Virus record (IMG/VR): IMGVR_UViG_3300007754_000342
Location: 1-61,909 of that record
Strand: one strand, 5' to 3'
DNA from: a virus
Lineage: Duplodnaviria > Caudoviricetes
DNA length: 61,909 nt
Shown: positions 32,695 through 49,770 of the stretch, in pieces
Position numbering within the stretch: position 1 is the first letter of the stretch
How the letters are laid out: every line of letters starts with the position of its first letter
The notes under the pieces: generated by a model
Databases searched by the model: none
What the model saw: only the letters and a program-made list of their open reading frames with translations
What the model was told of the DNA's origin: nothing
Made by a program: the position numbers and the translations under genes

Positions 32695-34146
32695 ATGATA
32701 AATCACAAGTTATATGGTAGAAGAATCTTACACGTAATGTCACCTGTAAGATGGCGTTCAACCAAATTTATGCATCAAATGGATTCCAATTATAAAGTAA
32801 TGGTTAAGACTATAAAATGGTTACCAATGTGTCATCATTATGTTTTAGTTCCACCAAACAATACAATTCCGCATCTTGGAGATAATGTTACTAAAATACC
32901 ATTTCCATATGCTGGTAGTGTGTTGTTTAATCGTGGTTTTTTTGAAAGTAAAGCTCTATTGAAGAAGATGGATTTTCAAAAACTCGATATTGATTTTATT
33001 TTTAATCATCAACCAGAACTATTGTATAATGTTTATAATGCTATCTTGACCGATAGATATGGTATGACTGTAGATAGTTATAATTTTTTCCATTGGGTTG
33101 ATTGTGAAAAGAGTAGACCTACTGGTGGCTATCCAGTTGGATTTTTTAGACAAATGGAAGCTATTGATTTATCAACAAAATCTTATTTTCATTGTCCAGT
33201 TAGTTTAGATTATATGAAATCTAATTGGGATAAAATGCCACACACTTCACAAGGTGTTGATGAAAATGTAATGAAAGAGAAGATTAATTATTTCCCACTT
33301 GGTGTTGGTGATTTACCTGACCCAGAACCATTTCCATTACCAGATAAAAAGATATTAGTTTTTAATCATAGGTGGAATCAATCATGTGGTATAAAAAAAC
33401 TTATACAATTTACAGAAGGACTTGATAGAGATGAGTGGTTGGTATGGGTTACCGATGATGATGCTAAACATCCAAAGGCAGGTAAACCTGCACCAGATTG
33501 GATGAAGGTTCAGAACTTACCAAGTGGCGGTCAATATAGATATCTTATAGATAATTGTTATGCTACTATTTGTCTTGTACACGATTATATGACTTGGAAT
33601 TTATCTGCACAAGATGCTATAAAAGCTGAAAGACCAAGTTTAGTTTATGAACATCCAACACACGATTATGTTTTGGGTGAAGACTATCCGTTTTTCTTTA
33701 ATGATAAAAAATCATTTCTTGAGTTGTTAGATAATACACCAAGACATTATGGTTGGGATTTACCAAAACACGATGAGACATTTAAAGAAAATTTAATTGG
33801 TGATTTAATTGATGCGTGTGATAGTAAAAAGAAACGTACTGTCAGAACACCAAGTGCTGGAATAGAATGGTTATATCATATATTACAAGGTAATGGTTTT
33901 AAGAAAAATTTATTACACAATAGTCATCCAAATTTATATCTTAGTAATACTTGGGAGAAGATAAGACTTTGGTGTATGTCCAAAGGAGTTAAGGATGACC
34001 CAAACTATGAATTTACTAAATTATTTATCCCAGATGATAAGAGAGATGAAATACAAAAACTCGTTGATGATTCTGGAGAAACGTTTGGTGAATCAAAGTT
34101 AGACCCAAAATTTACTATAATCAATAAAGATGATAGTTGGTTTTAA
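32695..34146 (+). CDS. GT-B fold glycosyltransferase, candidate DNA base glycosyltransferase (paralog 1)
   Basis: DFIFNHQPE, FFHW, LVFNHRW, YMTWNLSAQD; stop overlaps the PolB start; ends DDSWF. Confidence 0.7.
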   Translation: MINHKLYGRRILHVMSPVRWRSTKFMHQMDSNYKVMVKTIKWLPMCHHYVLVPPNNTIPHLGDNVTKIPFPYAGSVLFNRGFFESKALLKKMDFQKLDIDFIFNHQPELLYNVYNAILTDRYGMTVDSYNFFHWVDCEKSRPTGGYPVGFFRQMEAIDLSTKSYFHCPVSLDYMKSNWDKMPHTSQGVDENVMKEKINYFPLGVGDLPDPEPFPLPDKKILVFNHRWNQSCGIKKLIQFTEGLDRDEWLVWVTDDDAKHPKAGKPAPDWMKVQNLPSGGQYRYLIDNCYATICLVHDYMTWNLSAQDAIKAERPSLVYEHPTHDYVLGEDYPFFFNDKKSFLELLDNTPRHYGWDLPKHDETFKENLIGDLIDACDSKKKRTVRTPSAGIEWLYHILQGNGFKKNLLHNSHPNLYLSNTWEKIRLWCMSKGVKDDPNYEFTKLFIPDDKRDEIQKLVDDSGETFGESKLDPKFTIINKDDSWF

Positions 34147-36653
34147 TGTATCAGAATATATTTTATGATAACTTCAAAAATAAGATACATATTTGGGATG
34201 ACGAAAAAGGTTATCTTGTCCTACCATATAAAAAATACGCATATGTAAAAGATAATTATGGAACTTATGTATCTCTATATGGAGATAAACTAAAAAAAGT
34301 ATATAAGTTCGATAAGAAGACTAAAAACCTTTGGGAATCTGATGTAAATCCAGAGACAAGAACACTTGTTGATATGTATACAGATTCAGATGACCTATCC
34401 ACTAATATTAGAATTGGTGTAATTGATATCGAGGTAGAAGTTACACAAGGATTTCCAGATGTTGAAAAAGCAGAGAACAAAATAACTTCAATAGCTTACT
34501 ATGATAGTGAGGTAGATAAATATTTTTGTCTTGTACTTGACCCAGAGAATAGACTAACTCTTGAAACAAAAGATGATGTTGAGATAGAAGCTTTCCAAGA
34601 AGAAGGTGAGTTGTTAAATAGATTTTATGCATTATTTCTGAAGTTGAGACCTACAATACTAACTGGTTGGAATAGTCTAAGGTTTGATATACCATACCTT
34701 TACAATAGAGCTACACAAGTACTTGGTTCTGAAATAGCAGATTGTCTATCACCAATTAGAAGAGTTAATTGGAGTGACTATCAAAATAGATATAAAATAG
34801 CTGGATTATCACAATTAGATTATTTATCATTATATAAGAAATTTACATTTACACAAAAAACATCGTATAGATTAGACGCTATAGCAGAAGATGAACTTGG
34901 TGAGAAAAAAGTTGAGTATGAAGGAACATTAAATGACTTGTATGACAATGACTTAGATAAGTTTGTAGAATATAACGTACATGACGTTAGACTTGTTAAG
35001 ATGTTAAATGACAAGTTGGATTTTATTGATGTATGTCGTGGTATTGCTCACGTTGGTCATGTTCCATATGAAGAAGTTGAATGGTCTTCGAGATACCTTG
35101 AAGGAGCCGTATTAGTTTACTTAAAGAAACTTGGTATTGTTGCACCAAACAAAAAGAAGGGTGGTAGAAAAGATTTATTTGAAGAAAATAAATTCTCTGG
35201 TGCATATGTTCAAGACCCGCAGAAAGGTAGACACGAATGGATTTATGATTTAGATATTACTTCAATGTATCCATCAATTATTATGTCGTTGAATATATCA
35301 CCAGAAACAAAGATAGGTGAAATTGTAGGATGGGATTCAGAAGAGTACGTTAAAAAAGTACCAAAGACTTATTCAGTTAAAATGAATGGTAAGGAACAAG
35401 GTAAGTTAACACATCAAGAATTGGAAATGTATTTTAGAGATAACCAAGTTTCTATTTCTTCTAATGGTATAATTTATAAAACAGATAAAAAGGGTTTGAT
35501 TCCAGCCTTGTTAGAACAATGGTTTGATACAAGAGTAGAGTTTAGAAAATTAGCTAAGAAGTTTGCCGATGAAGGTGATGAAGAAAAGTATCAATATTTT
35601 AATAGGAAACAATACATTCAAAAAGTTGTTTTAAATTCATTGTATGGTGTATTGGGTTTATCAGTTTTTCGATTCTATGATTTGGATAACGCTGAAGCAA
35701 CAACATTGACTGGTCAATCATTGATTAAATTTACAAAGAAGATTGGTAATCATTTCTATAATAAAGAACTTGAAGATGATAAAGATTATTGTATCTACAT
35801 TGATACTGATTCGGTATTTTATTCAGCCGTACCACTTCTTGATAAGAGATTTCCAGATGAAAAACTTTCTGATGTTATGAAGACACAAAAGATTTCAGAG
35901 ATAGCTACAGAAGTTCAAGGTTATATGAATACTTCATATGATTATTTTGCTAAAAAGTTTTGTAATATAGATAAACATAGATTTGAAATTAAACAAGAGA
36001 TTATAGCAAGAGCTGGTTTCTTTGTTGTTAAGAAACGATATGGAATGAGAATTATTAATGATAATGGTGTAAAGGTAAATAAGGTTCACGTAAAAGGTTT
36101 AGATACAGTTAGAAGCACATTCCCACCTGCAATGAAAGTTTTATTAAAAAGTGTTCTTGATGATATATTAAATTATGTTCCAAAGGATAAAGTTGATAAA
36201 CGGATATTGGATTTTAAAAGTAATATAAGAAATTTAAGTGTAGATGATATAGCAAATCCAGTTGGTGTTAAAAATTTAGAAAAGTATACACCAAAGAAAG
36301 ATAATAAATTCGCTAATAGAAGTGCTACTACTGATATTATGACTGGTACACCTGTTCACGTTAAGTCTTCATTGTATTATAATGATTTGTTAAAATATTT
36401 TAAAAAGAAAAGTTACGAACCAATTGTTAGTGATTCTAAAATCAGATGGGTATATTTGAAAGATAATCCATTGAAATTGGATGTTGTTGCTTATAAGGGA
36501 TATGAAGACCCAAAAGAAATAATGGATTTTATAAAAGAATATATTGATTATGATAAAATGTATGAACAAGCTCTAACTAAAAAACTAAATATGTTTTATG
36601 GTGCGTTAGATTGGGATGAACCAAAAATACAAAATGAGAACGCATGGTTTTAG
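34146..36653 (+). CDS. Family B DNA polymerase
   Basis: DIEV, TGWN..FDIPY, YNVHDV, DITSMYPS, K..LNSLYG, YIDTDS, KKRY, KGLD.VRS. Confidence 0.96.
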   Translation: MYQNIFYDNFKNKIHIWDDEKGYLVLPYKKYAYVKDNYGTYVSLYGDKLKKVYKFDKKTKNLWESDVNPETRTLVDMYTDSDDLSTNIRIGVIDIEVEVTQGFPDVEKAENKITSIAYYDSEVDKYFCLVLDPENRLTLETKDDVEIEAFQEEGELLNRFYALFLKLRPTILTGWNSLRFDIPYLYNRATQVLGSEIADCLSPIRRVNWSDYQNRYKIAGLSQLDYLSLYKKFTFTQKTSYRLDAIAEDELGEKKVEYEGTLNDLYDNDLDKFVEYNVHDVRLVKMLNDKLDFIDVCRGIAHVGHVPYEEVEWSSRYLEGAVLVYLKKLGIVAPNKKKGGRKDLFEENKFSGAYVQDPQKGRHEWIYDLDITSMYPSIIMSLNISPETKIGEIVGWDSEEYVKKVPKTYSVKMNGKEQGKLTHQELEMYFRDNQVSISSNGIIYKTDKKGLIPALLEQWFDTRVEFRKLAKKFADEGDEEKYQYFNRKQYIQKVVLNSLYGVLGLSVFRFYDLDNAEATTLTGQSLIKFTKKIGNHFYNKELEDDKDYCIYIDTDSVFYSAVPLLDKRFPDEKLSDVMKTQKISEIATEVQGYMNTSYDYFAKKFCNIDKHRFEIKQEIIARAGFFVVKKRYGMRIINDNGVKVNKVHVKGLDTVRSTFPPAMKVLLKSVLDDILNYVPKDKVDKRILDFKSNIRNLSVDDIANPVGVKNLEKYTPKKDNKFANRSATTDIMTGTPVHVKSSLYYNDLLKYFKKKSYEPIVSDSKIRWVYLKDNPLKLDVVAYKGYEDPKEIMDFIKEYIDYDKMYEQALTKKLNMFYGALDWDEPKIQNENAWF

Positions 36654-36898
36654 TATTATACACATCATCTAATATACCAGATTGTCCTTATTGTGATGAA
36701 GCACGCACGTGGTTGAATGATAACAAAGTTAATTTTGTTGAGGTAGATGTAGCTAACAATCAGAAACTAAAAGATAAAATATATGAAAAGACAAAATCTA
36801 AGAGTGTACCAGTTGTTAATATTGATGGTTCATATTTTAGAGGTTGGTTTACAAAAAAAGAATTGGAAGAATTATTAAAATTATTGAAAAAAAATTAA
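36644..36898 (+). CDS. Glutaredoxin / NrdH-like redoxin
   Basis: CPYC motif, SVPVV.IDG. Confidence 0.9.
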   Translation: MVLVLYTSSNIPDCPYCDEARTWLNDNKVNFVEVDVANNQKLKDKIYEKTKSKSVPVVNIDGSYFRGWFTKKELEELLKLLKKN

Positions 36899-36899
36899 T

Positions 36900-36926
36900 C
36901 GTTTTGAACTTGTCATATATATGTAT
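36900..36926 (+). promoter_or_regulatory. Putative class B promoter upstream of the clamp operon
   Basis: CGTTT-N14-ATATGTAT. Confidence 0.45.
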
Positions 36927-36957
36927 ATATGACTCAAATAATAAGGAGAAATAGGTT

Positions 36958-37710
36958 ATGGAAAAAGCGAAATTAACTCGCTATCTTGATAAAGTTCGTA
37001 TTGGTAATCATATCGAACAAGCTCAAATATCAACTAAAGATGGAGTATCACATACTTGGGTTGCAAGTAAAGATAAAGATGCTTTGGTTGTTTTAAAAAT
37101 GACTAAATCAGAAATACCAGATTCTGTTTTAGGTATAGGTGACTTACAGAAGTTTAATGGATTACTTGGTGCACTTGGTAATGATATTTCTATGGATGTT
37201 GTAAAGATTGATAGAGATGGAGAAGAAAAGTCAGTAGAAGTAAATTCATCAGATTCTTATGGTAACTCTACAAAGTATATGTTACACGATACAAGTGTTG
37301 TTCCAACAACACAAGGAAACGTTGTAAAGGGTTTATTGGAACAAGATTATAATTTAAAATTTACTTTGGATACCAATTTTGTTTCTAAATTTATAACTGG
37401 TAAATCAGCTCTTGGTGACGAAGTAGAAACGTTTACTATTGTTGCTGATAATAACAATGTTAATGTTGTTATTGGTTGGAGAAACACACACTCTAACAGA
37501 CTATCAATTCCAGTCACAACACAAACTTATGAAGAAGTTGATAAGGTTTCTTTTAGTTCACAAGTTATGGCTGACATTCTGAGTGCTAATAAAGAATGTG
37601 AAACTGGAACTCTTGAAATGAAAGGTGGAGATAGACCATTAATCAAAATGACATTTAATGTTGATGATTATAATGCGATTTATTTTTTACAACCAAGAGT
37701 TACGGTTTAA
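36958..37710 (+). CDS. Sliding clamp (gp45/PCNA-like)
   Basis: 250-aa alpha/beta protein immediately before the clamp loader, ending in a beta strand (AIYFLQP). Assigned mainly by synteny. Confidence 0.7.
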   Translation: MEKAKLTRYLDKVRIGNHIEQAQISTKDGVSHTWVASKDKDALVVLKMTKSEIPDSVLGIGDLQKFNGLLGALGNDISMDVVKIDRDGEEKSVEVNSSDSYGNSTKYMLHDTSVVPTTQGNVVKGLLEQDYNLKFTLDTNFVSKFITGKSALGDEVETFTIVADNNNVNVVIGWRNTHSNRLSIPVTTQTYEEVDKVSFSSQVMADILSANKECETGTLEMKGGDRPLIKMTFNVDDYNAIYFLQPRVTV

Positions 37711-37714
37711 ATGA

Positions 37715-38644
37715 ATGAAAATTACTAATGAAAATAATACTCTATGGGTAGAAAAGTATCGGCCTCAGACACTTGACTCTTATATTGGGAACACCCAATT
37801 AAAAGAAAAAGTTCAAGTGTGCTTAGAGAGTGGAGACTTACCACATCTTTTACTATATGGGAAGGCTGGTACAGGTAAGACCACTCTCGCTAAATTACTC
37901 GTTAATAATATAGATTGTGAATATCTATATATTAATGCGTCAGACGAGAGAAATCTTGATATGGTTCGAGATAAGGTAAAAACTTTTGCAGGAACACTTG
38001 GGTTTTCTGATTTAAAAGTTATTATTTTAGATGAGTGTGATTATATAACACCCACCGCTCAAGCTGCATTAAGAAATTTGATGGAGACATATTCCAATCA
38101 TTGTAGATTTATTTTGACTTGTAATTTTGTCGAGAGAATTATTGACCCAATTCAAAGTAGGTGTCAATCTTATAATTTAACACCACCATCAAAAAAGGAA
38201 GTAGCTATACATCTTGGTCAAATACTTGATACAGAGAATGTAAAGTATGAAACTAAAGATGTAGTTTTCATTATTAATAGTTGTTACCCAGATATTCGTA
38301 GGGTTATAAATTCCGCACAAAAACAATCAATCAAGGGAAAGTTGGAGTTAGATAAAACAAGTATAGTTCAAAATGATTATAAGATGAAGGTTCTTGAAAT
38401 TTTAACACAACAAGATAAGAGAAGTGCGTTTAAGAATGTTAGAAAGTTACTTTTGGATAGTGAAGTTAAGGATTATACAGAATTATTTAGATTGTTATAC
38501 GATGAAGTTGATGATTGGGGTAAAGGTCACGTAGCCGAATGTATTTTAATTTTAGCGGAATATCAAATGTCAGATAGTCAAGTTGTTGATAAAGAAATTA
38601 ATGCTATGGCTATGTTAACTAAATTATTGGGAACTATAAAATGA
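37715..38644 (+). CDS. Clamp loader large subunit (gp44/RFC-like AAA+)
   Basis: WVEKYRP, GKAGTGKTT, NASDER, ILDECD, SRC. Confidence 0.95.
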   Translation: MKITNENNTLWVEKYRPQTLDSYIGNTQLKEKVQVCLESGDLPHLLLYGKAGTGKTTLAKLLVNNIDCEYLYINASDERNLDMVRDKVKTFAGTLGFSDLKVIILDECDYITPTAQAALRNLMETYSNHCRFILTCNFVERIIDPIQSRCQSYNLTPPSKKEVAIHLGQILDTENVKYETKDVVFIINSCYPDIRRVINSAQKQSIKGKLELDKTSIVQNDYKMKVLEILTQQDKRSAFKNVRKLLLDSEVKDYTELFRLLYDEVDDWGKGHVAECILILAEYQMSDSQVVDKEINAMAMLTKLLGTIK

Positions 38645-39426
38645 GAGTATTAGTAGTTGGTGAAAATTGTCAAGACCAATTTATTTATGGTGACATAGAT
38701 AGATTAAGTCCAGAAGCACCTGTTCCAGTATTTGTACCAGAATATACACAAGTAAATGATGGAATGGCTAGAAATGTTGCTAACAACGTTGAGTCATTAG
38801 GTATGTGTATTAATACAATTACAAATAATGAACCTGGTAATGATATTATTAAAAAACGTTATGTTGATAAACGTAGTGGTCAGATGGTTTTACGAGTTGA
38901 TGAACATGATTATTGTGAACCAATTGATAATGTATTATTATCTACAATTCAAGATAATGAATGTTACATACAGTTGAGTGGTATAGTTAAAGTTGATGCT
39001 ATAATTATATCAGATTATTGTAAAGGTTTTTTGAATGAAGAAGATATAAAATTTATTTGTGATAATAATAAAAATGTATTTGTAGATACTAAAAAACACC
39101 TTGGTAGTTGGATTGAAAATGCAGATTTTATTAAAATAAATGAATTTGAGTATAAGAAGAATCATGAGTTTTTAAAGGGTAATGAACGTAAACTTATTGT
39201 TACTATGGGTAGTAAAGGTTGTATGTGGAATAATACAGTTTTTCCTGCAGGAAAAGTAAAGATAGCCGAAGTAAGTGGAGCAGGAGATACATTTATGGCA
39301 GGTTTGGTTTGTGGTTATTTAAATACAAATGATATTAGAAAAGCAATAGAGTATGCACAGAAGTGTACTGAAATAGTTGTACAAGAACGTGGGGTAACCA
39401 TAGTTGATAGGGAGAATATAAAATGA
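38641..39426 (+). CDS. RfaE/HldE-type sugar-phosphate kinase domain (PfkB family)
   Basis: RLSPEAPVPV, ISDY.KG, KINE.E, VSGAGDTF. Confidence 0.88.
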   Translation: MRVLVVGENCQDQFIYGDIDRLSPEAPVPVFVPEYTQVNDGMARNVANNVESLGMCINTITNNEPGNDIIKKRYVDKRSGQMVLRVDEHDYCEPIDNVLLSTIQDNECYIQLSGIVKVDAIIISDYCKGFLNEEDIKFICDNNKNVFVDTKKHLGSWIENADFIKINEFEYKKNHEFLKGNERKLIVTMGSKGCMWNNTVFPAGKVKIAEVSGAGDTFMAGLVCGYLNTNDIRKAIEYAQKCTEIVVQERGVTIVDRENIK

Positions 39427-39692
39427 GTACAAAACCAATGAAACCTTTTCCAGGTGCACCAAAAAATGAAGTAAAAGTTAATTTAGCAGAACAAGATACG
39501 ATGAACTGCGAAAAGTGTGGAAATTATTTATGGATAACGGCGTTTGTTATCAAGAAAATTTCAGCTATAGTTTCACCAACAGGTCAAGCTGGATTGGTAC
39601 CTGTTCAAGTTTATAGTTGTGGTAATTGTGGTGAAGTACCTAAAGAATTATTAGAAGGTAGTGGATTAGATGTCCAAGAAACCAATAGTTAA
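39423..39692 (+). CDS. Zn-ribbon hypothetical protein
   Basis: CEKC and CGNC pairs. Confidence 0.75.
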   Translation: MSTKPMKPFPGAPKNEVKVNLAEQDTMNCEKCGNYLWITAFVIKKISAIVSPTGQAGLVPVQVYSCGNCGEVPKELLEGSGLDVQETNS

Positions 39693-40143
39693 GAAAAAAG
39701 GGTTATTTGACCATATAAATGCAATAACAACAGTTCAGAATCAAAACTATTGGGAAGAACTATCAGAAGAAAATAAAAAAACCTATTCTACTTATATGGT
39801 TAATAGGTTTTTATCAATGAAAATCGAGTGGATAGATTTTGTTAATGATGTTCAAAAATATTGGAATGAATTAACACCAAGAGAACATTATAAAGTCTAT
39901 GCAGATATTTTACCGAAAGGTAAACAATTTTTAAAATACATAAAAAAGGATAAGGATATGAACTTACCAAAGTGGTTTATGGAAATATTCTGTAAACATT
40001 ATGAATGTTCTACAGGACAAGTTAAGGGTTACATAGAAACATTGTTATTGACAGAACAAGGTACTCTTGAAATACGGGAAGTTTTAACAAAATATGGTGT
40101 CGAGCCAAAAAAATGGCAAGAACTACCATTCGAAATACGATAG
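39670..40143 (+). CDS. Clamp loader small subunit (gp62-like)
   Basis: LFDHINAI, YS.YMVNRFLSM, LPKGKQFLKYIK; synteny. Confidence 0.75.
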   Translation: MSKKPIVKKKGLFDHINAITTVQNQNYWEELSEENKKTYSTYMVNRFLSMKIEWIDFVNDVQKYWNELTPREHYKVYADILPKGKQFLKYIKKDKDMNLPKWFMEIFCKHYECSTGQVKGYIETLLLTEQGTLEIREVLTKYGVEPKKWQELPFEIR

Positions 40144-40151
40144 GAGGTTAC

Positions 40152-40724
40152 ATGACCAATCTTGAAGAAAGAAACATAGGACATACTATGCTCATGAAAG
40201 AACTTGAGTGGGGTGTGAATACTGAAACTAATACAGTTTATATGGCATATGATTTTGATATGGATAATTTGTATACTATAGTTACAAAGACGGACAATAT
40301 ACTTAGACATCAAAAAGATGTTAGAAAACCTTTAAATATGATTATCAGTTCTTATGGTGGTGATGTTTATGCTATGTTGGGTTTGATAGACCATATAAGA
40401 AGTTTACCAGTAAAAGTTAATACTCATTGTCTTGGTGCTTGTATGTCTGCCGCAGCAGTTCTACTTGCGTGTGGAACTGGTAATAGAACAATGAGTAAAC
40501 ACTCGACAGTAATGATTCACGAAGGTTCTGCATTTGAAGCTGGAAAAACATCCGATGTACTAAAAGGAGCAGACCATTTAAAACTTTTACAAAAGAGTAT
40601 ATGTGATATACTTGGAGATGTAACAAAGAAAACTTCTGATTTTTGGGAAGGAGTTTCTAAACAAGATACCTATCTAACGGCTAAGGATTGTTTGAAGTAT
40701 GGTGTCGTAGACGAGGTAGTTTAA
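40152..40724 (+). CDS. clpP: ClpP-family protease
   Basis: ISSYGG.V, CMSAA (Ser), MIHE (His), DTYLTA..C..YG.VD; GGAGG RBS before ATG 40152. Confidence 0.9.
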   Translation: MTNLEERNIGHTMLMKELEWGVNTETNTVYMAYDFDMDNLYTIVTKTDNILRHQKDVRKPLNMIISSYGGDVYAMLGLIDHIRSLPVKVNTHCLGACMSAAAVLLACGTGNRTMSKHSTVMIHEGSAFEAGKTSDVLKGADHLKLLQKSICDILGDVTKKTSDFWEGVSKQDTYLTAKDCLKYGVVDEVV

Positions 40725-40990
40725 TGAAAAAATGGAATAAAGTTAAAGGTAGAAAACATCCAGAAGATGAAATTTTATTATATTATGATAAACCAGTTTC
40801 ATTTGAGGACGTAGCCGTTATGTGTAAATTTTTTATGATTAATGAAGATAAAATATATCCACCACCAAGATTTAAAGGTGCGGAAATGTTTAAAGAATAT
40901 ATAAAAGAAGTTTTGGATACAAGAAAAATACCAAATAAAAATAAATTTCAATTAAACAAAAATTTAACTATTTTAGAGGAGTGTAAATGA
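40724..40990 (+). CDS. Hypothetical protein
   Basis: Coupled ORF (TAATG overlap). Confidence 0.7.
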   Translation: MKKWNKVKGRKHPEDEILLYYDKPVSFEDVAVMCKFFMINEDKIYPPPRFKGAEMFKEYIKEVLDTRKIPNKNKFQLNKNLTILEECK

Positions 40991-41364
40991 AAACTATAAA
41001 AGATACACCAACAGGTATTGATTCACCTGGAACAATTGTGGAACAAATGGAAAAAGAATGGCCAGAGATGACACAAGAGTTCAAGAAGATTCAACGAGAA
41101 CAATACGAATTGTTTCTACACAAACAACATGATTACGGCCCAGGTAATATTTCAGTTGGTACTCAATTACAAACACCTGATGAAATTAAATTATCACTTA
41201 CAGGGTTATGGTTCAGAATTAATGACAAGTGCCAGAGATTGAAAACTTTATTGATGGGTGGTAAACAATCAGCTGTAGATGAACCACTTGAAGATGCATA
41301 TTTAGATATATCTAATTATGGTATAATGGCAACAATAGTCAAGAATGGTAAATGGGGTAAGTGA
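40987..41364 (+). CDS. Nucleotide modification associated domain 1 (DUF1599-like) protein
   Basis: F..KQ.DYG..NI, R.NDK..RL, E...D...DI.NYGI. Confidence 0.75.
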   Translation: MKTIKDTPTGIDSPGTIVEQMEKEWPEMTQEFKKIQREQYELFLHKQHDYGPGNISVGTQLQTPDEIKLSLTGLWFRINDKCQRLKTLLMGGKQSAVDEPLEDAYLDISNYGIMATIVKNGKWGK

Positions 41365-41492
41365 TGAAACAACCTATAAAAATTATAGAAGAGTTAGTTG
41401 ATAAATTTCCAAATGATATGGAGCTAGGTGGAAAGGTTAGAGCTTATATACATTGGTTACGAGGACTACTAAAGGATAAACCAGATGTATAA
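41364..41492 (+). CDS. Small hypothetical protein (42 aa, not in ORF track)
   Basis: TGATG overlap; MKQPIKIIEELVDKFPNDMELGGKVRAYIHWLRGLLKDKPDV*. Confidence 0.65.
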   Translation: MKQPIKIIEELVDKFPNDMELGGKVRAYIHWLRGLLKDKPDV

Positions 41493-41604
41493 GTATGAAT
41501 GTAAGGCTGGAGTATATGAGTCTGATACTTTAGTTGGTTTACTATGGGAAAGATTCAAACACAGATTATGGCACTTGAAGGAGCATGGTAAATGGATGGA
41601 TTGA
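41485..41604 (+). CDS. Small hypothetical protein (39 aa, not in ORF track)
   Basis: Overlaps both neighbours; MYKYECKAGVYESDTLVGLLWERFKHRLWHLKEHGKWMD*. Confidence 0.6.
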   Translation: MYKYECKAGVYESDTLVGLLWERFKHRLWHLKEHGKWMD

Positions 41605-42989
41605 GAATATTACATTATGGTAGTCCAGTAAGATTTGATAGTAGTGGAATATTTCAACACGAATTTGATTCTAACTATAAAGTATTAGAAAAGACAATAT
41701 CATTCTTACCAGAATGTCACCACTATGTTTTAGTACCAGAAAAACATAAGATGCCTGATGATAGAGCAAATGTCACTCTTATCAAGTATCCTTTCTATAG
41801 AAACGCTTTATCTAATCGTTCAGCGTTTCATGATTCTGTTTTTAGAAATATAATAAATTTTAAGACACAAGATATAGATTTTGTTTTTTGCCATCAACCA
41901 GAGATGTTATATAATATCTTTGTAGCTATGAGTGATAAAAGATATGGACAAGTTGTAAGTAGATTCTTATTTTTTCATTGGGTTGATTGTCCAGGTAGTA
42001 GAGTATCTTCCGCGACACCACCACCATTTATGAGACAAATAGAATCAATAGGTATGGCTGATAACGCATTCTTTCATACTGATATATCGAATGATTGGTT
42101 AGCTAGAAACTTTCATAAAGGTCAACCAGTATCTATTGATATGAATTACATTAAAGATAAAACAAAAACTATGCCACTAGCTTCAGACCCGTTACCACCA
42201 GCAGAACCTATAGATTTACCAACAGATAAAAAGATTGTTGTGTTTAATCATAGATGGGGCCAGACTACTGGTGTAAATAGGTTGTTAGAATATTTTGAGG
42301 GATTGGAAGATGAATATATGTTGTGGAGTACTGATTGGCAAGCTCCACCAGAATATGTAGCGTCCAAATTGAATAGAGGTCAATATAGATACTTATTGGA
42401 AAACTCACATTGTAGTGTAAGTTTTGTTGATGGTTATATGACTTGGAATTTATCGGTACAAGATGGTATACAAGTTGATAAACCAGTTTTAGTATATGAC
42501 AATCCGCAAATGAGTAAAGTTGTTGGTGACAATTATCCATATACATTTAAAACAAAAGAAGAGTTTCAGAATATGATAAGAAAAATACCTGAAAAAAGCT
42601 CTTGGAAATTAGATAATTTTGAGTTAATTTTTAGGGAGAACTTGAGGAATACCATGCAAGAAATTATAGCTCGTGCTAGACCCAAGTTACCACAAGATGC
42701 TATGAATTGGTTATATTGTATACTAAATGGAGTGACCCAAAAAAGTCAAATAACAGAACAAGTACAACCACATTTAGCAGCCAATTCAACATGGCAATAT
42801 ATTCGTAGGTGGTTACTAAGTAAGGGTGTAAGAGATAATCCCAAGTTTCCATATACAAATTATGATTTATCAAAAAGTAATATTGACCAAGCTCTAATTG
42901 ATGAGTGTTTGAGTACGGTCAAATTGGAATTGAAAGAGAATAAGAGAAAAGAATTAACTTCAGTAGATAAAGAGGAATCTTGGTTTTGA
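41592..42989 (+). CDS. GT-B fold glycosyltransferase, candidate DNA base glycosyltransferase (paralog 2)
   Basis: Collinear with 32695..34146 (RILH..SPVR, DSNYKV, CHHYVLVP, HQPE, FFHWVDC, FNHRW, YMTWNLS.QD); ends EESWF. Confidence 0.7.
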   Translation: MDGLRILHYGSPVRFDSSGIFQHEFDSNYKVLEKTISFLPECHHYVLVPEKHKMPDDRANVTLIKYPFYRNALSNRSAFHDSVFRNIINFKTQDIDFVFCHQPEMLYNIFVAMSDKRYGQVVSRFLFFHWVDCPGSRVSSATPPPFMRQIESIGMADNAFFHTDISNDWLARNFHKGQPVSIDMNYIKDKTKTMPLASDPLPPAEPIDLPTDKKIVVFNHRWGQTTGVNRLLEYFEGLEDEYMLWSTDWQAPPEYVASKLNRGQYRYLLENSHCSVSFVDGYMTWNLSVQDGIQVDKPVLVYDNPQMSKVVGDNYPYTFKTKEEFQNMIRKIPEKSSWKLDNFELIFRENLRNTMQEIIARARPKLPQDAMNWLYCILNGVTQKSQITEQVQPHLAANSTWQYIRRWLLSKGVRDNPKFPYTNYDLSKSNIDQALIDECLSTVKLELKENKRKELTSVDKEESWF

Positions 42990-43852
42990 AATCAGTATCG
43001 TATAGTCAATATAATTTATGGTCACAATGTCCATTTAGATGGAAACTATTATATGTAGATGGTCTTCGTGAATTTACAGATAGTATTCACACAATGTTTG
43101 GTACTTCAATGCATGAAGTATTACAATTTTATTTACACATAATGTATAATCAGACAGCTAAAGAAGCAGATTCCATTGATTTGGAAGACTTATTGAGACA
43201 AAGAATGCAATATCATTATGAAAGAATAATGGAAGCTAATGGTGGTGTAGTTTTTTGTACTGAAAACGATATGGTAGAGTTTTATAATGATGGGTGTGTT
43301 ATTTTAGACTGGTTAAAGAAAAGAAGAGCTCAATATTTCAGTAAGAAGGGTTACGAACTTGTTGGTATTGAAACAGAACTAAATTATAAAATGAAGGGCA
43401 ACGTGGTGTTTAAGGGGTATATTGACCTCGTAATCCACGATACAGTTAGAGACAAGTATATCATCTACGATATTAAGACTTCAACAAAAGGTTGGAATAA
43501 GTACCAGAAAAAAGACAAAAATAAGACAGACCAATTGTTACTTTATAAACAATTCTATTCTGCTCAAATGGATGTTCCGATTGAAAAGATAGATGTTGAG
43601 TTTTTTATTGTAAAACGTAAGTTATGGGAGAATGTGGACTTTCCACAAAAGAGAGTTCAGAAAGTAATACCTGCTTCTGGAAAACCAAGTATTAATCGAG
43701 TATTATTGAACTTAAATAAATTTTTAGAAGAATGTTTCGATGACAATGGAGAATACTTAAAAAATACTATTTATAGAAAAGAGCCTTCTCAAAAAAATTG
43801 TAGATATTGTGAGTTTAAAAACAAAAAAGAATTATGTGATAGGAAAAACTGA
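42980..43852 (+). CDS. Cas4/RecB-like PD-(D/E)XK exonuclease with 4-Cys cluster
   Basis: SYSQ...QCP, FGT.MHE, GYIDL, YDIKTS, QL.LY, CRYC...C. Confidence 0.85.
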   Translation: MVLKSVSYSQYNLWSQCPFRWKLLYVDGLREFTDSIHTMFGTSMHEVLQFYLHIMYNQTAKEADSIDLEDLLRQRMQYHYERIMEANGGVVFCTENDMVEFYNDGCVILDWLKKRRAQYFSKKGYELVGIETELNYKMKGNVVFKGYIDLVIHDTVRDKYIIYDIKTSTKGWNKYQKKDKNKTDQLLLYKQFYSAQMDVPIEKIDVEFFIVKRKLWENVDFPQKRVQKVIPASGKPSINRVLLNLNKFLEECFDDNGEYLKNTIYRKEPSQKNCRYCEFKNKKELCDRKN

Positions 43853-45189: not shown

Positions 45190-46581
45190 ATGTCAAAGAA
45201 GAAAATATTGTTATTATCAGATGATTTGAGAATGTCATCTGGGGTCGGAACGATGTCTCGTGAATTTGTAAGAGGTACATTGCATCATTATGATTGGGTT
45301 CAAGTTGGTGGAGCAATAAAACATCCAGAAGAAGGTAAAGTTGCCGACATATCAGAAGAGTATGGTAAAGATATGGGTGTTGATGACGCTTATTGTAAAG
45401 TGTATTCAGTAAGTGGTTATGGTAACCCTGATATAGTTAGACATTTGATGTCTACTGAAAAACCAGATGCAATCCTACACTATACAGACCCAAGATTTTG
45501 GAATTGGTTATATCAAATGGAACACGAGATACGACAAGAGATACCAATATTCTATTATAATATTTGGGATGATTTACCATATCCAAGATGGAATGAGAAT
45601 TTTTATGAGTCTTGTGATTTGATTATGAATATATCTAAACAGACACATAATATTGTAGAAAACGTTTGTCAGAATAAACCAAGAACAGATACGGATAATA
45701 CTTACATACCACATGGAATAAGTGAAGTAGAGTTCTTTCCAATGACAGATGAACAAAAAAATTCTGAAAAATACGTAACATTCAAAAATCAGTTGACGAG
45801 GGGTAAAGAGAAGGATTTTATTTTATTTTATAACGCTCGTAATATAAAACGTAAGATGGTTGGTGATATTATTTTAGCGTATAATAAATTTTGTGGTATG
45901 TTACCAGAAGAACAAGCTAATAAATGTTTATTATTAATGCACACAACACCTGTTGACCAACATGGTACATCTATACCTGCGGTAGTAAAGGAATTATGTA
46001 CATATGGTGACGTAGCCTTTTCAGACCAAAAGATATCACCAGAAGCTATGAACTTTTTATATAATATGGCAGATTGTACTATATTGATTTCATCAAATGA
46101 GGGTTTTGGATTGTCTGGTGCAGAATCTATTATGTGTGGTACTCCAGTTATTTTAAATGTTACTGGTGGAATGCAAGACCAGTGTGGATTTAAGTTAGAT
46201 GGTAAGTATCTTACATACAAAGATTATTCAGAAGTACATTCACTTCATGATTATCGTAAGTGGGAAAATAATGATAGATTAACTCATGGAGAGTGGGTAA
46301 AACCAGTTTGGCCAAGAACACGTTCTTTGATGGGTTCACCACCAACACCATATATTTTTGATGATAGATGTGATTGGTATGATGTTGCAGATAGAATTAA
46401 GGAATGGTATGATGTTGGTGCTGAAGAAAGAAAGAGATGTGGTAAGATTGGACACGAATGGGCGTGTAGTGATGATTCAATGATGAGTTCACGTGCTATG
46501 TCTCAAAATTTTATAGACCACATGGATACAATTATGAAATCGTGGACACCAAGAAAACGTTATAGTATTTATAAAGTATAG
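45190..46581 (+). CDS. Glycosyltransferase family 4 (GT-B)
   Basis: LSDD.R..SGVG, YIPHG, RNI.RK, SSNEGFGLS..E.I.CGTP. Confidence 0.9.
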   Translation: MSKKKILLLSDDLRMSSGVGTMSREFVRGTLHHYDWVQVGGAIKHPEEGKVADISEEYGKDMGVDDAYCKVYSVSGYGNPDIVRHLMSTEKPDAILHYTDPRFWNWLYQMEHEIRQEIPIFYYNIWDDLPYPRWNENFYESCDLIMNISKQTHNIVENVCQNKPRTDTDNTYIPHGISEVEFFPMTDEQKNSEKYVTFKNQLTRGKEKDFILFYNARNIKRKMVGDIILAYNKFCGMLPEEQANKCLLLMHTTPVDQHGTSIPAVVKELCTYGDVAFSDQKISPEAMNFLYNMADCTILISSNEGFGLSGAESIMCGTPVILNVTGGMQDQCGFKLDGKYLTYKDYSEVHSLHDYRKWENNDRLTHGEWVKPVWPRTRSLMGSPPTPYIFDDRCDWYDVADRIKEWYDVGAEERKRCGKIGHEWACSDDSMMSSRAMSQNFIDHMDTIMKSWTPRKRYSIYKV

Positions 46582-46589
46582 GAGTTATA

Positions 46590-47915
46590 ATGAAACCATT
46601 AGTATTAGTTACAGCCCCAGTCGGAACAAGAAGTGGATATGGTGCACATAGTAGAGATATTGTACATTCTTTATTAGACTTAAATAAATTTGATGTAAAA
46701 ATTATGCCAGTAAGGTGGGGTAATACTTCAATGAATGCATTGAATATGGAAGACCCACGAGATAAAAGAATTATTGATTGTATGATGGATGGTACACAAT
46801 TACCAAAACAACCAGATATTCATATTCATATAGTTGTACCAAACGAGTTTAATCCAATTGGTAAACTTAATATAGGTATTACTGCTGGAATAGAAACTAC
46901 TGGATGTGTTCCAGAGTGGATTCAAGGTTTAAATAAAATGGATATGGTTATCGTACCATCAGAGTTTTCAAAAGATATTTTTATGAGAACTATATTTGAA
47001 TCTCAAAATGATAAAACTGGACAAAGGGGGCCTGACTTGAAGGTTGAAAAACCAATTGAAGTTTTATTCGAAGGAGCTGACTTAAATATCTATAAATCTA
47101 CCGATTCTTTTAGTAAAAGTTTAGTAGAAGAATTTGATAAAGTAGAAGAGAAATTTAATTTTCTATATACTGGACATTGGTTACAAGGAAATCTTGGAGA
47201 AGATAGAAAAGATACTGGTATGTTGGTTAAGACATTTTTAGAAACATTTAAGAATGTAAAAAATCCACCAGGTCTTATAATGAAGACGAGTGGTGCTACA
47301 TTTTCAATAATAGACAGAGAAGAAATTATTTCAAAAATTAAAGATATAAAATCTACTGTACAAGGTGAATTACCAAATGTTTATTTATTTCATGGTGATT
47401 TTAGTGATGAGGAAATGAATGGTTTATATAACCACCCTAAAGTTAAAGCTCACGTTTCATTAACACATGGTGAAGGATTTGGTAGACCATTGTTAGAAGC
47501 ATCTCTTTCAGAAAAACCAGTTATTGCTCCAAATTGGAGTGGTCATGTTGATTTTCTACACAAAGATTTATCAATATTATTACCTGGTAGTTTGAGTGCT
47601 GTACCACAAGGTTCGTTTCCAAAAGAAATTCATCTAAAGGGTTGTCAATGGTTTACTACAAATTATCCTTACGCTAGTAGAGTTATGATGGATGTATTCA
47701 AGAATTACCCAAAGTATTTAATCAATGCTAAAAAACAATCAATTTTTAGTCAAGATTTTAGTCTTGATAATATGACAAAAAAACTTGGTGAAATTGTAGA
47801 CAAGTATTATCAAGATATACCACAACAAGTTGATTTAAAATTACCAAAATTAAAGAAAGTTGCTGGTAACATAGAAACACCAAAAATTAATTTACCAAAA
47901 TTAAAGAAGGCTTAA
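46590..47915 (+). CDS. Glycosyltransferase family 4 (GT-B)
   Basis: SGYG.HSRD, EDRKD, HGEGFGRPLLEA, WSGHVDF. Confidence 0.9.
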   Translation: MKPLVLVTAPVGTRSGYGAHSRDIVHSLLDLNKFDVKIMPVRWGNTSMNALNMEDPRDKRIIDCMMDGTQLPKQPDIHIHIVVPNEFNPIGKLNIGITAGIETTGCVPEWIQGLNKMDMVIVPSEFSKDIFMRTIFESQNDKTGQRGPDLKVEKPIEVLFEGADLNIYKSTDSFSKSLVEEFDKVEEKFNFLYTGHWLQGNLGEDRKDTGMLVKTFLETFKNVKNPPGLIMKTSGATFSIIDREEIISKIKDIKSTVQGELPNVYLFHGDFSDEEMNGLYNHPKVKAHVSLTHGEGFGRPLLEASLSEKPVIAPNWSGHVDFLHKDLSILLPGSLSAVPQGSFPKEIHLKGCQWFTTNYPYASRVMMDVFKNYPKYLINAKKQSIFSQDFSLDNMTKKLGEIVDKYYQDIPQQVDLKLPKLKKVAGNIETPKINLPKLKKA

Positions 47916-47917
47916 TT

Positions 47918-48403
47918 ATGGCAGAAATACAAATAAAATGTCCACATTGTTATTCTGAAGAAAAATGTTTTGAAGAAACAGTTGAGAGAAAAGATGAAGA
48001 TGACTTTAAAAGTTATCTATGTTTTAATTGTGGTTATACATCAAACTCACTTTATTCAGAAGAATCGAAAGTAAAGAATCAACATTTAGAATCTACTGCA
48101 CAAATAATAAGAGATTTGGAATTTTTTGATGAAGAACGAAAGATATATTGGTATCCATCAGTTATTAACATGGGGTCTAAAGGTATTATTTATCCTGAAG
48201 GAGATGTCGAAAATTGGTATTGGAGATACGCTGAAGTGATATTTATACCAGAGGAAGAAAGGAAAAATTATCCAGTTCCAGGTAAAGATGGTGAGTTCTA
48301 TGAATCACGATTGGATACCGAAGGAGCTAAAAGATTTGGACAATTTGAATTTCTTGACGCTTGTAGAGCAATGGGAATAGTTAAAACTAACTTGGAGAAG
48401 TAA
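47918..48403 (+). CDS. Zn-finger hypothetical protein
   Basis: CPHC and CFNCG. Confidence 0.75.
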   Translation: MAEIQIKCPHCYSEEKCFEETVERKDEDDFKSYLCFNCGYTSNSLYSEESKVKNQHLESTAQIIRDLEFFDEERKIYWYPSVINMGSKGIIYPEGDVENWYWRYAEVIFIPEEERKNYPVPGKDGEFYESRLDTEGAKRFGQFEFLDACRAMGIVKTNLEK

Positions 48404-48404
48404 A

Positions 48405-49139
48405 TTGGGATTAGCCGCGGCATATCGTACTAAGTTTCTAAAACAAGAATTGGTTAAGAAAAATCAAATTCGTAGAGGTATGATTTTATTGGGTAAATAC
48501 AAATCTGCTAAAAGTGGTGAAGTTACAAATAAAGTTTCTTTAGTATTAGATTGGACGCCTTTTAGAGGAAATATAGCTCAAAGAAAATTGTATGTATTTG
48601 ATTTGGATAACTTACAACCAAGTCTTTTAAAAAGATTAATAAAAAAGGTTGGTGGACTTGAATTTACAAGTTATGATGATTTTACTTATCATAGAGTTAA
48701 ATTTGGTGAAGGTATAAGAGATGGTTCAATTACGTTCAATAAATACATTAGAGATTTTTTAACAGAAGTTGAAGGTGCGTGGAAAACATATACATTACGT
48801 AATTACAAACAAGTTAAAATATGTGATTATGATTATAGTGGAATGTTTACTGGAAAATCTTTACCACCAAGAATTACTATTGCAGATAGATTAGTTCAAT
48901 TAGAAGATTTATTAGAAGTTAACTTTAATAAAGTTGGTAAGGCTGTAAGTTCTAATTTTAAAGGTCAAGAGAAAGTTACCTATGATGAAATAATACAAGC
49001 GTATGGAGAAATAGAACAAACACCCGCTACTATATCTGAACAAAAGTATTGGGAAAGAATGAGAGCTCAAGCTATGGTGGAATATAATAAGAAAAGAGAA
49101 CAATTGTTAATGAGAAGAGCTAAAGGACAAGTAGTTTGA
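48405..49139 (+). CDS. Hypothetical protein
   Basis: 244-aa ORF, TTG start after GGAG. Confidence 0.65.
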   Translation: MGLAAAYRTKFLKQELVKKNQIRRGMILLGKYKSAKSGEVTNKVSLVLDWTPFRGNIAQRKLYVFDLDNLQPSLLKRLIKKVGGLEFTSYDDFTYHRVKFGEGIRDGSITFNKYIRDFLTEVEGAWKTYTLRNYKQVKICDYDYSGMFTGKSLPPRITIADRLVQLEDLLEVNFNKVGKAVSSNFKGQEKVTYDEIIQAYGEIEQTPATISEQKYWERMRAQAMVEYNKKREQLLMRRAKGQVV

Positions 49140-49666
49140 AAATTAGTTATGGTATCACAACTCATAATGAAGCTGATGAGTTAAATAGGTTATTAGAAAT
49201 TCTTATTCATAAAACACAACCCGAAGATGAGATAGTTATTTGTGTTGATGGAGAAGATGATGGAGTTAGGTTTGTATTAGATAGTTGGACTGCACAATAT
49301 GGACACGATGGTATGAAAGTTATTAAAGTTTATCAGAGAAAACTTGAAGGTGATTTTGCAGCCCAAAAGAATTCGGTAATAGAGAATTGTAGTGGAGATT
49401 ATATTTTTCATATTGATTGTGATGAGTACCCGAATGAAATATTATTAGAGCAACTTAAACCGATATTAGAAATGAATGATGCTGATTTAATATATGTGCC
49501 AAGAGTGAATACAGTTGATGGAATAACAGAACAACACATAAAACAATGGGGTTGGAAAGTAACTGCACCATTTGAACTTTATAATGAAAAAGTTATGGAT
49601 ACTGAAAGTGAAGAATATAAACTTTTGAAAAAAATGGACTTAATTGTTGAAGAAGAAATATTGTAA
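49136..49666 (+). CDS. Glycosyltransferase family 2, N-terminal part of a split gene
   Basis: KISYGITTHNE, DFAAQKN, DYIFHIDCDE, VPRVNTVDG. Confidence 0.85.
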   Translation: MKISYGITTHNEADELNRLLEILIHKTQPEDEIVICVDGEDDGVRFVLDSWTAQYGHDGMKVIKVYQRKLEGDFAAQKNSVIENCSGDYIFHIDCDEYPNEILLEQLKPILEMNDADLIYVPRVNTVDGITEQHIKQWGWKVTAPFELYNEKVMDTESEEYKLLKKMDLIVEEEIL

Positions 49667-49670
49667 ATAT

Positions 49671-49750: not shown

Positions 49751-49770
49751 CTTAATAAAGGAATAAATAA

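Follow-up and report, generated by a model that had tools for sequence, protein, structure and literature searches.

Why should two glycosyltransferases of a phage end in the same short peptide as the phage's own DNA polymerase? The question is raised by viral record IMGVR_UViG_3300007754_000342, which we analyzed over its full length of 61,909 nucleotides (hereafter “the window”). The window is an entire viral contig of 61.9 kb, about 30% complete by CheckV. All of its plausible genes are on the + strand, its gene content is of the T4-like myovirus type, and the phage is a marine T4-like phage of an uncultured lineage. Within a module of replication genes, the window encodes two glycosyltransferases (GT1 and GT2), a family-B DNA polymerase (PolB) and a sliding clamp, and GT1, GT2 and PolB carry closely similar C-terminal tails (Table 1). 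On balance, we favor the reading that this polymerase-like tail binds the clamp and tethers DNA-modifying enzymes to it, including those of a new family of GT-B glycosyltransferases.

The last eight residues of GT1, GT2 and PolB fit a single pattern, [IV]-x-[KN]-[DE]-[DEN]-[SA]-W-F. A terminal WF occurs on only these 3 of the 73 listed + strand open reading frames (ORFs) of at least 60 aa. No such end was seen on any of the window's Pfam-recognizable glycosyltransferases (at 20751, 45190, 46590, 49136 and 50600), and no aromatic tail was found on any protein of the glycan cluster toward the window end. GT1 and GT2 share 39% identity (E 1e-118) and are paralogues. Because of this, their shared tail counts as one event, and the PolB tail is a second, independent one. 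The three ends are also close to the genes that follow them, as the bases encoding W-F-stop (TGGTTTTAR) carry or abut the next gene's start at 34138-34148, 36642-36653 and 42978-42989. The GT1 stop codon overlaps the PolB ATG (TAATG at 34144-34148, within AGTTGGTTTTAATG), and PolB relatives begin at this overlapping ATG (MYQN...) and not at the TTG at 34137. The ATG of the glutaredoxin gene lies inside the W codon of PolB (GCATGGTTTTAG), and the only candidate start of the nuclease gene, the TTG at 42980, lies inside the GT2 tail (TCTTGGTTTTGA). Two downstream proteins therefore begin with MVL. The preliminary description of this DNA had given four ends (...NKDDSWF for GT1, ...QNENAWF for PolB, ...DKEESWF for GT2 and ...KNKFF for a DNA methyltransferase), and we verified all of them. 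Its further statements, that GT1 and PolB are arranged for translational coupling, that GT2 lies close to a gene for nucleotide modification associated domain 1 (DUF1599) and that glycosyltransferases of the downstream cluster lack a WF-type end, also proved correct.

The preliminary description proposed WF conservation as a check, and this was evaluated in 75 related viral loci and the window (76 loci in total). ORFs were called in all of them, and 925 non-redundant ORFs of at least 80 aa were surveyed for a pair of aromatic residues within the last five positions. The pair was detected in 35 of 37 PolB proteins and in 64 of 66 glycosyltransferase homologues (47 of 49 GT1-type and 17 of 17 GT2-type), as well as on a 356-aa methyltransferase (1 of 1). 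None of the 220 proteins from the other 11 replication-module query families had it (clamp, 31; gp44, 32; gp62, 28; Zn-ribbon, 27; DnaB, 20; ribonucleotide reductase [RNR], 20; nuclease, 18; DUF1599, 18; ClpP, 10; PfkB, 9; glutaredoxin, 7). Among ORFs that matched none of the 15 query families, it occurred in 16 of 601 (2.7%). The pattern is more than chance, and the aromatic pair, rather than WF as such, is what is kept across the glycosyltransferase family and PolB.

Larger homologue sets gave a similar picture. Exactly two aromatic residues close the chain in 77 of the best 120 GT1 homologues (FF 27, WF 26, WW 14, FW 9, YW 1); in most of the others the pair sits slightly further in, one to four residues before the terminus (as in FFEW, FWDWS and KFFNLE). 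All of the best 120 PolB homologues from a large protein collection have a terminal or near-terminal pair that is aromatic or hydrophobic-aromatic (FF 108, WF 9, YF 1, LF 1, FFDFDK 1). For full-length members of the glycosyltransferase family at E ≤1e-100, we counted by eye a hydrophobic-aromatic pair near the end in 11 of 13. The linker that precedes the glycosyltransferase tail varies in length and sequence and includes insertions and deletions, whereas the end is kept (alignment A3). A DPxF element some 10 residues further upstream is also conserved in GT1-type tails. Tails from the same genome can be alike, as judged by eye from the listed ends: PolB ends AKKFAEFFDF and GT1 TSKKFSEFFT in one locus (L054), PolB ends INKFFEL and GT2 PNKFFDLE in another (L051), and [SA]WF is found on PolB, GT1 and GT2 alike in the window's own clade.

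The protein that the preliminary description proposed as the sliding clamp has the fold expected of one. Its AlphaFold2 model (predicted local distance difference test [pLDDT] 92.6) has two domains, and Foldseek matched it to PCNA structures (E ~1e-12, template modeling [TM] score 0.70-0.74). Comparison with VIA gave Z scores of 20.7 to A. fulgidus PCNA (1rwz) and 20.0 to T4 gp45 (6drt), with residues 1-250 aligned. A sequence profile searched against the PDB identified PCNA 3p91 (E 7.6e-4). None of 18 family members had a Pfam match below E 0.01, and PCNA_C was seen in one member at E 0.086. The gene is located beside those for gp44- and gp62-like clamp-loader subunits, and the order PolB-(glutaredoxin)-clamp-gp44-...-gp62 occurs in the window and in related loci. 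The fold and this context support the clamp assignment.

The tails resemble the peptide by which T4 polymerase contacts its clamp. T4 gp43 ends KASLDFLFG and gp55 ends SLDFLYEAND (T4 record), and relatives of the window PolB end KASQFFGF, AEKFFSF, AQKFFDF, INKFFEL or IERFF at the same position as the gp43 tail. The C-terminal tail of gp43, which resembles a PCNA-interacting protein (PIP) motif, binds a mainly hydrophobic pocket of gp45, where basic residues meet acidic groups (PMC3012046). The corresponding element of gp33 and gp55 is a C-terminal LDFL motif (PMC9690074). Like the T4 and RB69 tails, those described here are short hydrophobic or aromatic peptides at the extreme C-terminus, preceded by acidic residues and present on several unrelated proteins. 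They differ in their core, a pair of aromatic residues (WF, FF, WW or FW) that in most cases closes the chain, with [DE][DEN][SA]WF in the window's clade. Moreover, the clients gp33 and gp55 are transcription factors, whereas the candidate clients here are DNA-modifying enzymes.

Gene neighborhood and complex prediction also bear on clamp binding. A glycosyltransferase and replication genes occur together in 44 loci; in 39 of these the glycosyltransferase gene is ≤400 nt from PolB, clamp or gp44, and in 18 loci it is located between the clamp and gp44 genes. In the AlphaFold2 model of GT1, pLDDT is below 50 at residues 479-483, and, given this and the variable, indel-bearing linker, we consider the tail to be a free peptide. 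We predicted the complex of three clamp copies with GT1 residues 448-483, as the preliminary description had suggested, and obtained a score of 0.60 (runs of 0.60, 0.65 and 0.02) against 0.12 for the best of three controls. At least 14% of contacts are common to the runs, with a partner pLDDT of at least 40. The mark used for this prediction was reached by 58 of 80 solved complexes and by 2 of 110 mismatched pairs, and scores of 0.60 or lower were given by only 7 of the 80 solved complexes plus both mismatched pairs that passed. As many PCNA-peptide complexes have been solved, the pass may reflect likeness to known structures.

GT1 and GT2 belong to a family without a curated profile. Neither matched a Pfam family at E ≤0.01 or any PHROG, and the curated families of the T4 alpha- and beta-glycosyltransferases (alpha-GT and beta-GT; PF11440 and PF09198, named in PMC13216743) are among those without a match. 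A tblastn search of 50,697 phage records with GT1 returned no match, so the family is present in no cultured phage of the searched collection. It is represented by 155 matches in 5.8 billion clustered proteins and by 298 of 1.84 billion representatives at E ≤0.001, and the nearest ESM Atlas clusters are “hypothetical proteins” of Uroviricota. Judged from these sequence searches, the family is small and viral.

We modeled GT1 with AlphaFold2 from an alignment of 36 homologues (A1; pLDDT 89.9, predicted TM score 0.89). The model comprises a Rossmann/GT-B region (residues ~5-380), a helical domain (~385-460) and a disordered tail, for which pLDDT is 36 in the last block. VIA comparison gave Z 21.8 to sucrose-phosphate synthase (6kih; root-mean-square deviation 3.7, 344 residues aligned), Z 21.2 to BshA and Z 20.1 to PimA, with PglA and WaaG also at Z ≥19. 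The glycosyltransferase of phage HY126 ranked 22nd (Z 17.2) and T4 AGT 33rd (1y6f, Z 15.1). With Foldseek, the HY126 enzyme was the top match (9iqz, E 3.8e-8) among 439 at E ≤0.001, at 11% identity and a TM score of 0.47. Based on the model, GT1 can be assigned confidently to the GT-B fold glycosyltransferases, with two Rossmann-like domains and an inter-domain cleft, as a member of an unclassified family. By paralogy, GT2 is assigned to the same family. Alignment A1 has 45 invariant columns, many of them polar residues, which suggests an active enzyme. A profile of the helical C-terminal domain and tail found nothing among PDB sequences (best E 0.53), and the isoelectric points of the glycosyltransferases and their domains were not discriminating. 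Thus, the GT-B claim of the preliminary description stands for GT1 by model, VIA and Foldseek and for GT2 by paralogy. Its comparison with T4 AGT holds for the shared GT-B fold, but generic GT4 enzymes score higher.

What else carries the tail? Ten of the 16 tail-bearing ORFs that matched no query family are DNA methyltransferases, Mom-family proteins or a small methyltransferase. Six are N6_N4 DNA methylases (PF01555), of which three have adjacent genes immediately preceding PolB in L036, two are in L077 and one is in L062. One related N6_N4 methylase lacks the aromatic pair and ends RRFLNERD. Two carriers are tandem Mom-family paralogues (PF25680, E 4.5e-57 and 8.9e-46; L043:5084-6657), located directly upstream of PolB, with tails KTFFDI and DSEFW. 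Another two are a small class-I methyltransferase encoded between PolB and the clamp (L032 and L035). Its counterpart in the window shares 75% identity with L032:8601-9233, and the orthologues end DKFFKF or NKFFSFD. The remaining carriers are two homologous unknown proteins adjoining a WW-type glycosyltransferase (L016 and L017), two PALP-domain proteins, a 123-aa unknown protein and window ORF 4710-5480. The main argument that the glycosyltransferases modify DNA too is that the annotated carriers, apart from PolB, are DNA-modifying enzymes. It seems that the clamp of this lineage serves as a common docking platform for such enzymes.

Window ORF 4710-5480 and its counterpart in a relative, G008 (38707-39585), encode a structural protein whose end, ...FFWP.., is kept in both phages. 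The G008 protein matches a baseplate-hub PHROG (E 4e-10), and this tail is probably unrelated to the clamp. In G008 (94% complete, 222 putative genes), 15 proteins have the aromatic pair, and the tail-bearing PolB, small methyltransferase and GT1 genes cluster together. Other + strand carriers in G008 are the baseplate-hub-like protein and seven small proteins without a PHROG match, and this genome-wide census identified no further annotated client. One 200-aa G008 protein (117273-117875; L087:3273-3875) has no PHROG match, ends KTYEKFWK and is encoded just upstream of a ThyA homologue (118086-118859). This protein may be yet another enzyme of nucleotide metabolism that bears the tail.

The window also encodes the 356-aa methyltransferase, which the preliminary description had listed among the tail carriers. 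It matches phrog_799, “DNA methyltransferase” (E 1.5e-6), has no Pfam match at 1e-3 and contains the motifs EPSAGDGSF and GNPPFG. These correspond to the S-adenosylmethionine-binding motif I and the catalytic (D/N)PP(Y/F) motif IV that mark N6/N4 DNA methyltransferases, and the ORF is a probable N6-adenine or N4-cytosine DNA methyltransferase. A loose version of the tail pattern occurs in 20 of 120 homologues, many times inside a conserved helix and not as an appended tail. The label is reasonable, but the tail is poorly conserved, and we dropped this protein as a firm clamp client.

Which base could accept the sugar? No gp42-type hydroxymethylase and no ThyA-type 5-hydroxylase were found in the window. 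Among five related records, ThyA was detected in one and ThyX in two. Two relatives are ≥90% complete, and ThyA is missing from one of them. A search for the TET/JBP family was silent in all records and in control genomes alike and is thus uninformative. The preliminary description saw no hydroxymethylase or TET/JBP gene. This holds for a gp42-type hydroxymethylase, but the window does encode ThyX and a generic 2OG-Fe(II) oxygenase (59126-59791), neither of which that description mentioned; the oxygenase is a candidate maker of a hydroxylated acceptor. No nanopore run covering the region was listed, and a literature search on DUF1599 gave no paper of apparent relevance by title and abstract. 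Candidate donor-pathway genes are those for the PfkB kinase and, downstream, the cytidylyltransferase-like and NT5C-type proteins; they show no link to GT1 or GT2.

According to the reading that we favor, the C-terminal 8-mers of GT1 and GT2 would copy the PolB peptide of the same phage and, by homology with T4 and RB69 gp43, dock in a hydrophobic pocket of a trimeric PCNA-fold clamp. The clamp would be loaded by the neighboring gp44/gp62-like loader, and clamps that stay on DNA behind the fork could carry the glycosyltransferases along the new duplex, where they would glycosylate a DNA base with a nucleotide-sugar as donor. Each paralogue may make a different linkage, or the two may add sugars in succession, like the T4 glycosyltransferases or the RB69 arabinosyltransferases. 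In relatives, methylases and Mom-type enzymes may dock on the clamp likewise. A more ambitious version, which we offer only tentatively and rate well short of even, is that in an abundant lineage of marine T4-like phages the tail is a portable address label that loads a tool-belt (GT-B enzymes, N6/N4 methylases, Mom-type proteins and the small methyltransferase) on the clamp, with the glycosyltransferases co-replicatively glycosylating a base made without a known hydroxymethylase, 5-hydroxylase or TET/JBP enzyme. Such a route would be a new chemistry of DNA glycosylation.

Several observations weigh against tethering of DNA-modifying enzymes by this tail. Both sucrose-phosphate synthase and BshA match GT1 with better scores than T4 AGT does, and the fold of GT1 does not identify the acceptor because it is generic and GT4-like. 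The T4 alpha-GT ends KEQFDIITK, unlike the gp43 tail, whereas the window glycosyltransferases copy the polymerase tail. Distant members of the GT1/GT2 family (E > ~1e-80) mostly lack the tail, and a strict tail pattern is present in 10 of 61 full-length members overall. Some glycosyltransferases end in WW, but none of the best 120 PolB homologues does, so the exact aromatic residues do not strictly co-vary. Aromatic C-termini also serve other contacts, as in the RNR small subunit (DWDDIF) and the baseplate-hub-like protein of G008 (FFWPND). The tail of the 356-aa methyltransferase is absent from a homologue that is 91% identical and present in one of its five closest homologues. The complex prediction was graded only as “weak support,” with one of its three runs at 0.02. 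No hydroxymethylase-type enzyme consistently travels with the glycosyltransferase genes, and G007, which is 91% complete and has both paralogues, lacks ThyA and ThyX. Finally, in 28 of the 76 loci no PolB, clamp or gp44 gene was found beside the glycosyltransferase. Two of these loci stop at the edge of the contig, immediately behind DnaB-RNR-GT1. The remaining 26 have a glycosyltransferase that is 59-79% identical, ends WW or NKFF and is on a myovirus fragment, and those examined are among auxiliary and baseplate genes (for L059, RimK-, UvdE- and deformylase-like genes and a baseplate wedge gene). PolB was not found on five records with such replication-distant glycosyltransferases, all of which are 15-44% complete. 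In sum, the preliminary interpretation is partly supported: it gained from the GT-B and clamp folds, tail conservation, synteny and the T4 alpha-GT precedent, and was weakened by the unconserved methyltransferase tail and by the absence of a gp43-like tail on T4 alpha-GT.

The alternative that survives best, though we judge it unlikely, is that the tail binds the clamp and that GT1 and GT2 have no role on DNA bases. They could act on a replisome or virion protein or on some other acceptor close to the fork, or could be clamp-bound regulators, as gp33 and gp55 are in T4 late transcription. T4 clamp clients do extend beyond DNA modification and include gp33 and gp55 (PMC9690074), RNase H (PMC3012046) and ligase (title of 6drt). 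The nearest folds are those of generic GT4 enzymes, whose substrates are sugars, lipids and small molecules, an enzyme that makes a hydroxylated base is not consistently present, and the window has a large, separate glycan cluster. Against this, the other annotated tail carriers are DNA-modifying enzymes or PolB (10 of the 16 unassigned ORFs), and the invariant, often polar columns of the family are what would be expected of an active enzyme. The N-terminal domain is the usual acceptor-binding half of GT-B enzymes, and that of GT1 is basic (isoelectric point 9.1), which is a weak argument for DNA as the acceptor.

Less probable again is that the shared peptide serves a partner other than the phage clamp, such as a replisome hub (single-stranded DNA-binding protein or loader), the host beta clamp or, as a degradation signal, ClpP. 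A ClpP gene is indeed part of the same module, C-terminal aromatic tails make other contacts (e.g., in the RNR small subunit), and the clamp-GT1 complex was only weakly predicted. In addition, the tails miss the canonical PIP pattern Qxxhxxaa (PMC3012046): those of GT1 and GT2 have no Q and have an acidic residue at the “h” position, and in PolB the Q is one residue out of register. However, the tails of PolB and of T4 gp43, the latter assigned to gp45 binding (PMC3012046), correspond both in position and in sequence (KAS...F.F), and the glycosyltransferase gene sits between clamp and loader genes in the 18 loci noted above. ClpP is present in a minority of loci (10 non-redundant copies versus 31 clamps), and the complex prediction fell to 0.00 when the clamp was replaced. 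We regard it as very improbable that the [SA]WF ends are chance or a by-product of nucleotide-level constraint, with TGGTTTTAR doubling as the next start region, for although the GT1, PolB and GT2 ends each overlap the next gene's start, the pair persists where the codons (FF, WW, FW), the downstream genes and the context differ, and it is present in all of the best 120 PolB homologues, a family-wide conservation that already contradicts this explanation.

Tethering of DNA-modifying enzymes to a clamp has precedents. T4 alpha-GT co-purifies with gp45 and beta-GT does not (PMC13216743). The alpha-GT-gp45 binding was published earlier (Sommer et al., 2004, as cited), the pull-down was repeated in PMC13216743, and clamp-bound alpha-GT is also mentioned in PMC6024577. 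In T4, the gp45 contact does not set the alpha/beta ratio (PMC13216743). The window phage resembles T4 in having GT-B enzymes as putative DNA modifiers, its own, probably trimeric, clamp, T4-type replication and two such glycosyltransferases per genome. It differs in that no counterpart was detected of gp42 and gp56 of the T4 hydroxymethylcytosine pathway. Outside phages, DNMT1 is recruited to newly replicated DNA via a PCNA-binding motif (PMC9690074). That system likewise pairs a DNA-modifying enzyme with a PCNA-like clamp through motif-based recruitment, but the one proposed here is in phages, involves a terminal peptide on glycosyl-, methyl- and Mom-type enzymes and has no enzyme homology with DNMT1.

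A further parallel is offered by RB69, DLP3 and HY126. HY126 DNA carries arabinosylated 5-hydroxycytosine, and in these T4-like phages several GT-B enzymes act on DNA alongside kinase, phosphatase and nucleotidyltransferase genes for the donor (PMC13326640). The window has genes for a PfkB kinase, a cytidylyltransferase-like protein and an NT5C-type phosphatase. It differs in the low similarity of GT1 to the HY126 enzyme and in the ThyA-type 5-hydroxylase, for which the window search was negative. PMC13326640 does not mention a clamp. Phage clamp-coupled DNA modification has been reported for one enzyme, T4 alpha-GT, with no motif named for it in the accessible portions of these sources. In titles and abstracts, with partial coverage of the literature, we found no description of polymerase-like tails on phage glycosyltransferases, methyltransferases or Mom proteins. 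Three points appear to be new: a GT-B family without Pfam or PHROG match that copies the polymerase tail, the presence of this tail on methylases and Mom proteins, and the lack of a known acceptor-making enzyme.

Table 1. Coordinates of features discussed in the text; positions refer to the window unless a locus is named.
Feature	Position	Strand	Evidence or remark
GT1	32695..34146	+	483 aa; C-terminus INKDDSWF
GT1 C-terminal 8-mer, candidate clamp-binding peptide	34120..34143	+	INKDDSWF
Family-B DNA polymerase (PolB), T4 gp43-like	34146..36653	+	Pfam DNA_pol_B, DNA_pol_B_exo1; phrog_262 E 1.2e-185
PolB C-terminal 8-mer	36627..36650	+	IQNENAWF
Glutaredoxin	36644..36898	+	Pfam Glutaredoxin E 1.9e-15
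Sliding clamp, PCNA/gp45 fold	36958..37710	+	250 aa; structure model
Clamp-loader AAA+ subunit, gp44-like	37715..38644	+	phrog_168 E 1.8e-84; Pfam AAA, DNA_pol3_delta2
PfkB-family sugar kinase	38641..39426	+	Pfam PfkB E 1.6e-18; between gp44-like and gp62-like genes
Clamp-loader small subunit, gp62-like	39670..40143	+	Pfam Phage_clamp_A E 9.7e-7; phrog_225
ClpP	40113..40724	+	same module as PolB, clamp and loader
DUF1599, nucleotide modification associated domain 1	40987..41364	+	Pfam PF07659 E 3.6e-8
GT2	41592..42989	+	465 aa; C-terminus VDKEESWF
GT2 C-terminal 8-mer	42963..42986	+	VDKEESWF
PD-(D/E)XK nuclease	42980..43852	+	Pfam PDDEXK_1 E 6e-26; directly 3' of GT2
356-aa methyltransferase	23662..24732	+	C-terminus KNKKNKFF; phrog_5172 E 3.3e-31
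Small class-I methyltransferase	25309..25923	+	Pfam Methyltransf_11; C-terminus KKAWTFT
ThyX	15996..16697	+
gp32-like single-stranded DNA-binding protein			encoded in the window
Tail sheath gene		+	encoded in the window
RecA/UvsX-like recombinase		+
5'-3' exonuclease		+
Glycan/sugar-modification cluster	45190..61485	+	toward window end
257-271-aa protein	L059:11433-12248, L018:10929-11702, L031:4658-5464, others		weak PHROG match to metal-dependent phosphohydrolase

The surroundings of the module are as follows. Upstream of GT1 are genes that, from reading their translations, we take to encode a DnaB-like helicase (29039-30415) and a class II RNR (30471-32477). Among the related loci, the PfkB kinase and the glutaredoxin were seen in the window's own clade only. 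The nuclease gene comes directly after GT2 in the window, as it does in most related loci with the two genes; in L051, L052, L058 and L077 a ClpP gene separates them. Two genes 3' of the nuclease is a small SLOG/DprA-like protein (44286-44687; YAcAr, cpYpsA and DNA_processg_A matches). The glycan cluster encodes two GT4-type and three GT2-type transferases, a DegT aminotransferase, two Methyltransf_24 proteins, a weak sulfotransferase match, an NT5C-type deoxynucleotidase, an ATP-grasp protein, a PIG-L-like deacetylase, the 2OG-Fe(II) oxygenase, a cytidylyltransferase-like protein and a cupin. At the contig start, ORF 2-307 consists of V/Q/E repeats (MEQVEVVVQVV...) and may be a low-complexity or repeat region. 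The nearest named relative of PolB is that of Microcystis phage Mel-JY01 (45% identity), in which the module order is as in the window and PolB ends NLSKFFNFK; no glycosyltransferase homologue was seen in the 42.5-kb stretch of Mel-JY01 that was inspected.

Two related loci have interrupted replication genes. PolB is split into two ORFs in L065 and L066, and gp44 is split likewise in L065 (L065:12291-14695 and 16550-18914; L066:5032-8618). About 1 kb of inserted sequence lies between the two parts of PolB in L066, and the same is true of the two parts of gp44 in L065, while the PolB halves of L065 are nearly adjacent. These splits are possible inteins, introns, homing-endonuclease insertions or frame breaks. 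In the glycosyltransferase loci away from replication genes, the 257-271-aa protein is encoded one or two genes downstream of the glycosyltransferase. Its end, F[DE]ELFG[DE]K(K), resembles that of T4 gp43 (DFLFG), and a gene homologous to the NT5C-type gene of the window (56997-57578) lies about 3 kb upstream in loci with this protein.

For the biology of these uncultured marine phages, the tail provides a signature, readable from genomes, that links the polymerase C-terminus to at least four unrelated kinds of DNA-modifying enzyme and singles out a GT-B family unrecognized by curated libraries. If the peptide binds the clamp, peptide and recombinant clamp would make a cheap and direct test system, the interaction would explain how DNA modification can be fast enough to escape host nucleases, and the tail could serve as a sequence marker for finding new DNA-modifying enzymes in phage genomes. 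If GT1, GT2 and their relatives act on DNA, abundant ocean phages would carry an as yet unrecognized glycosylated base, and this would matter for the evasion of restriction, for bias in virome sequencing and for enzymatic tools to label DNA.

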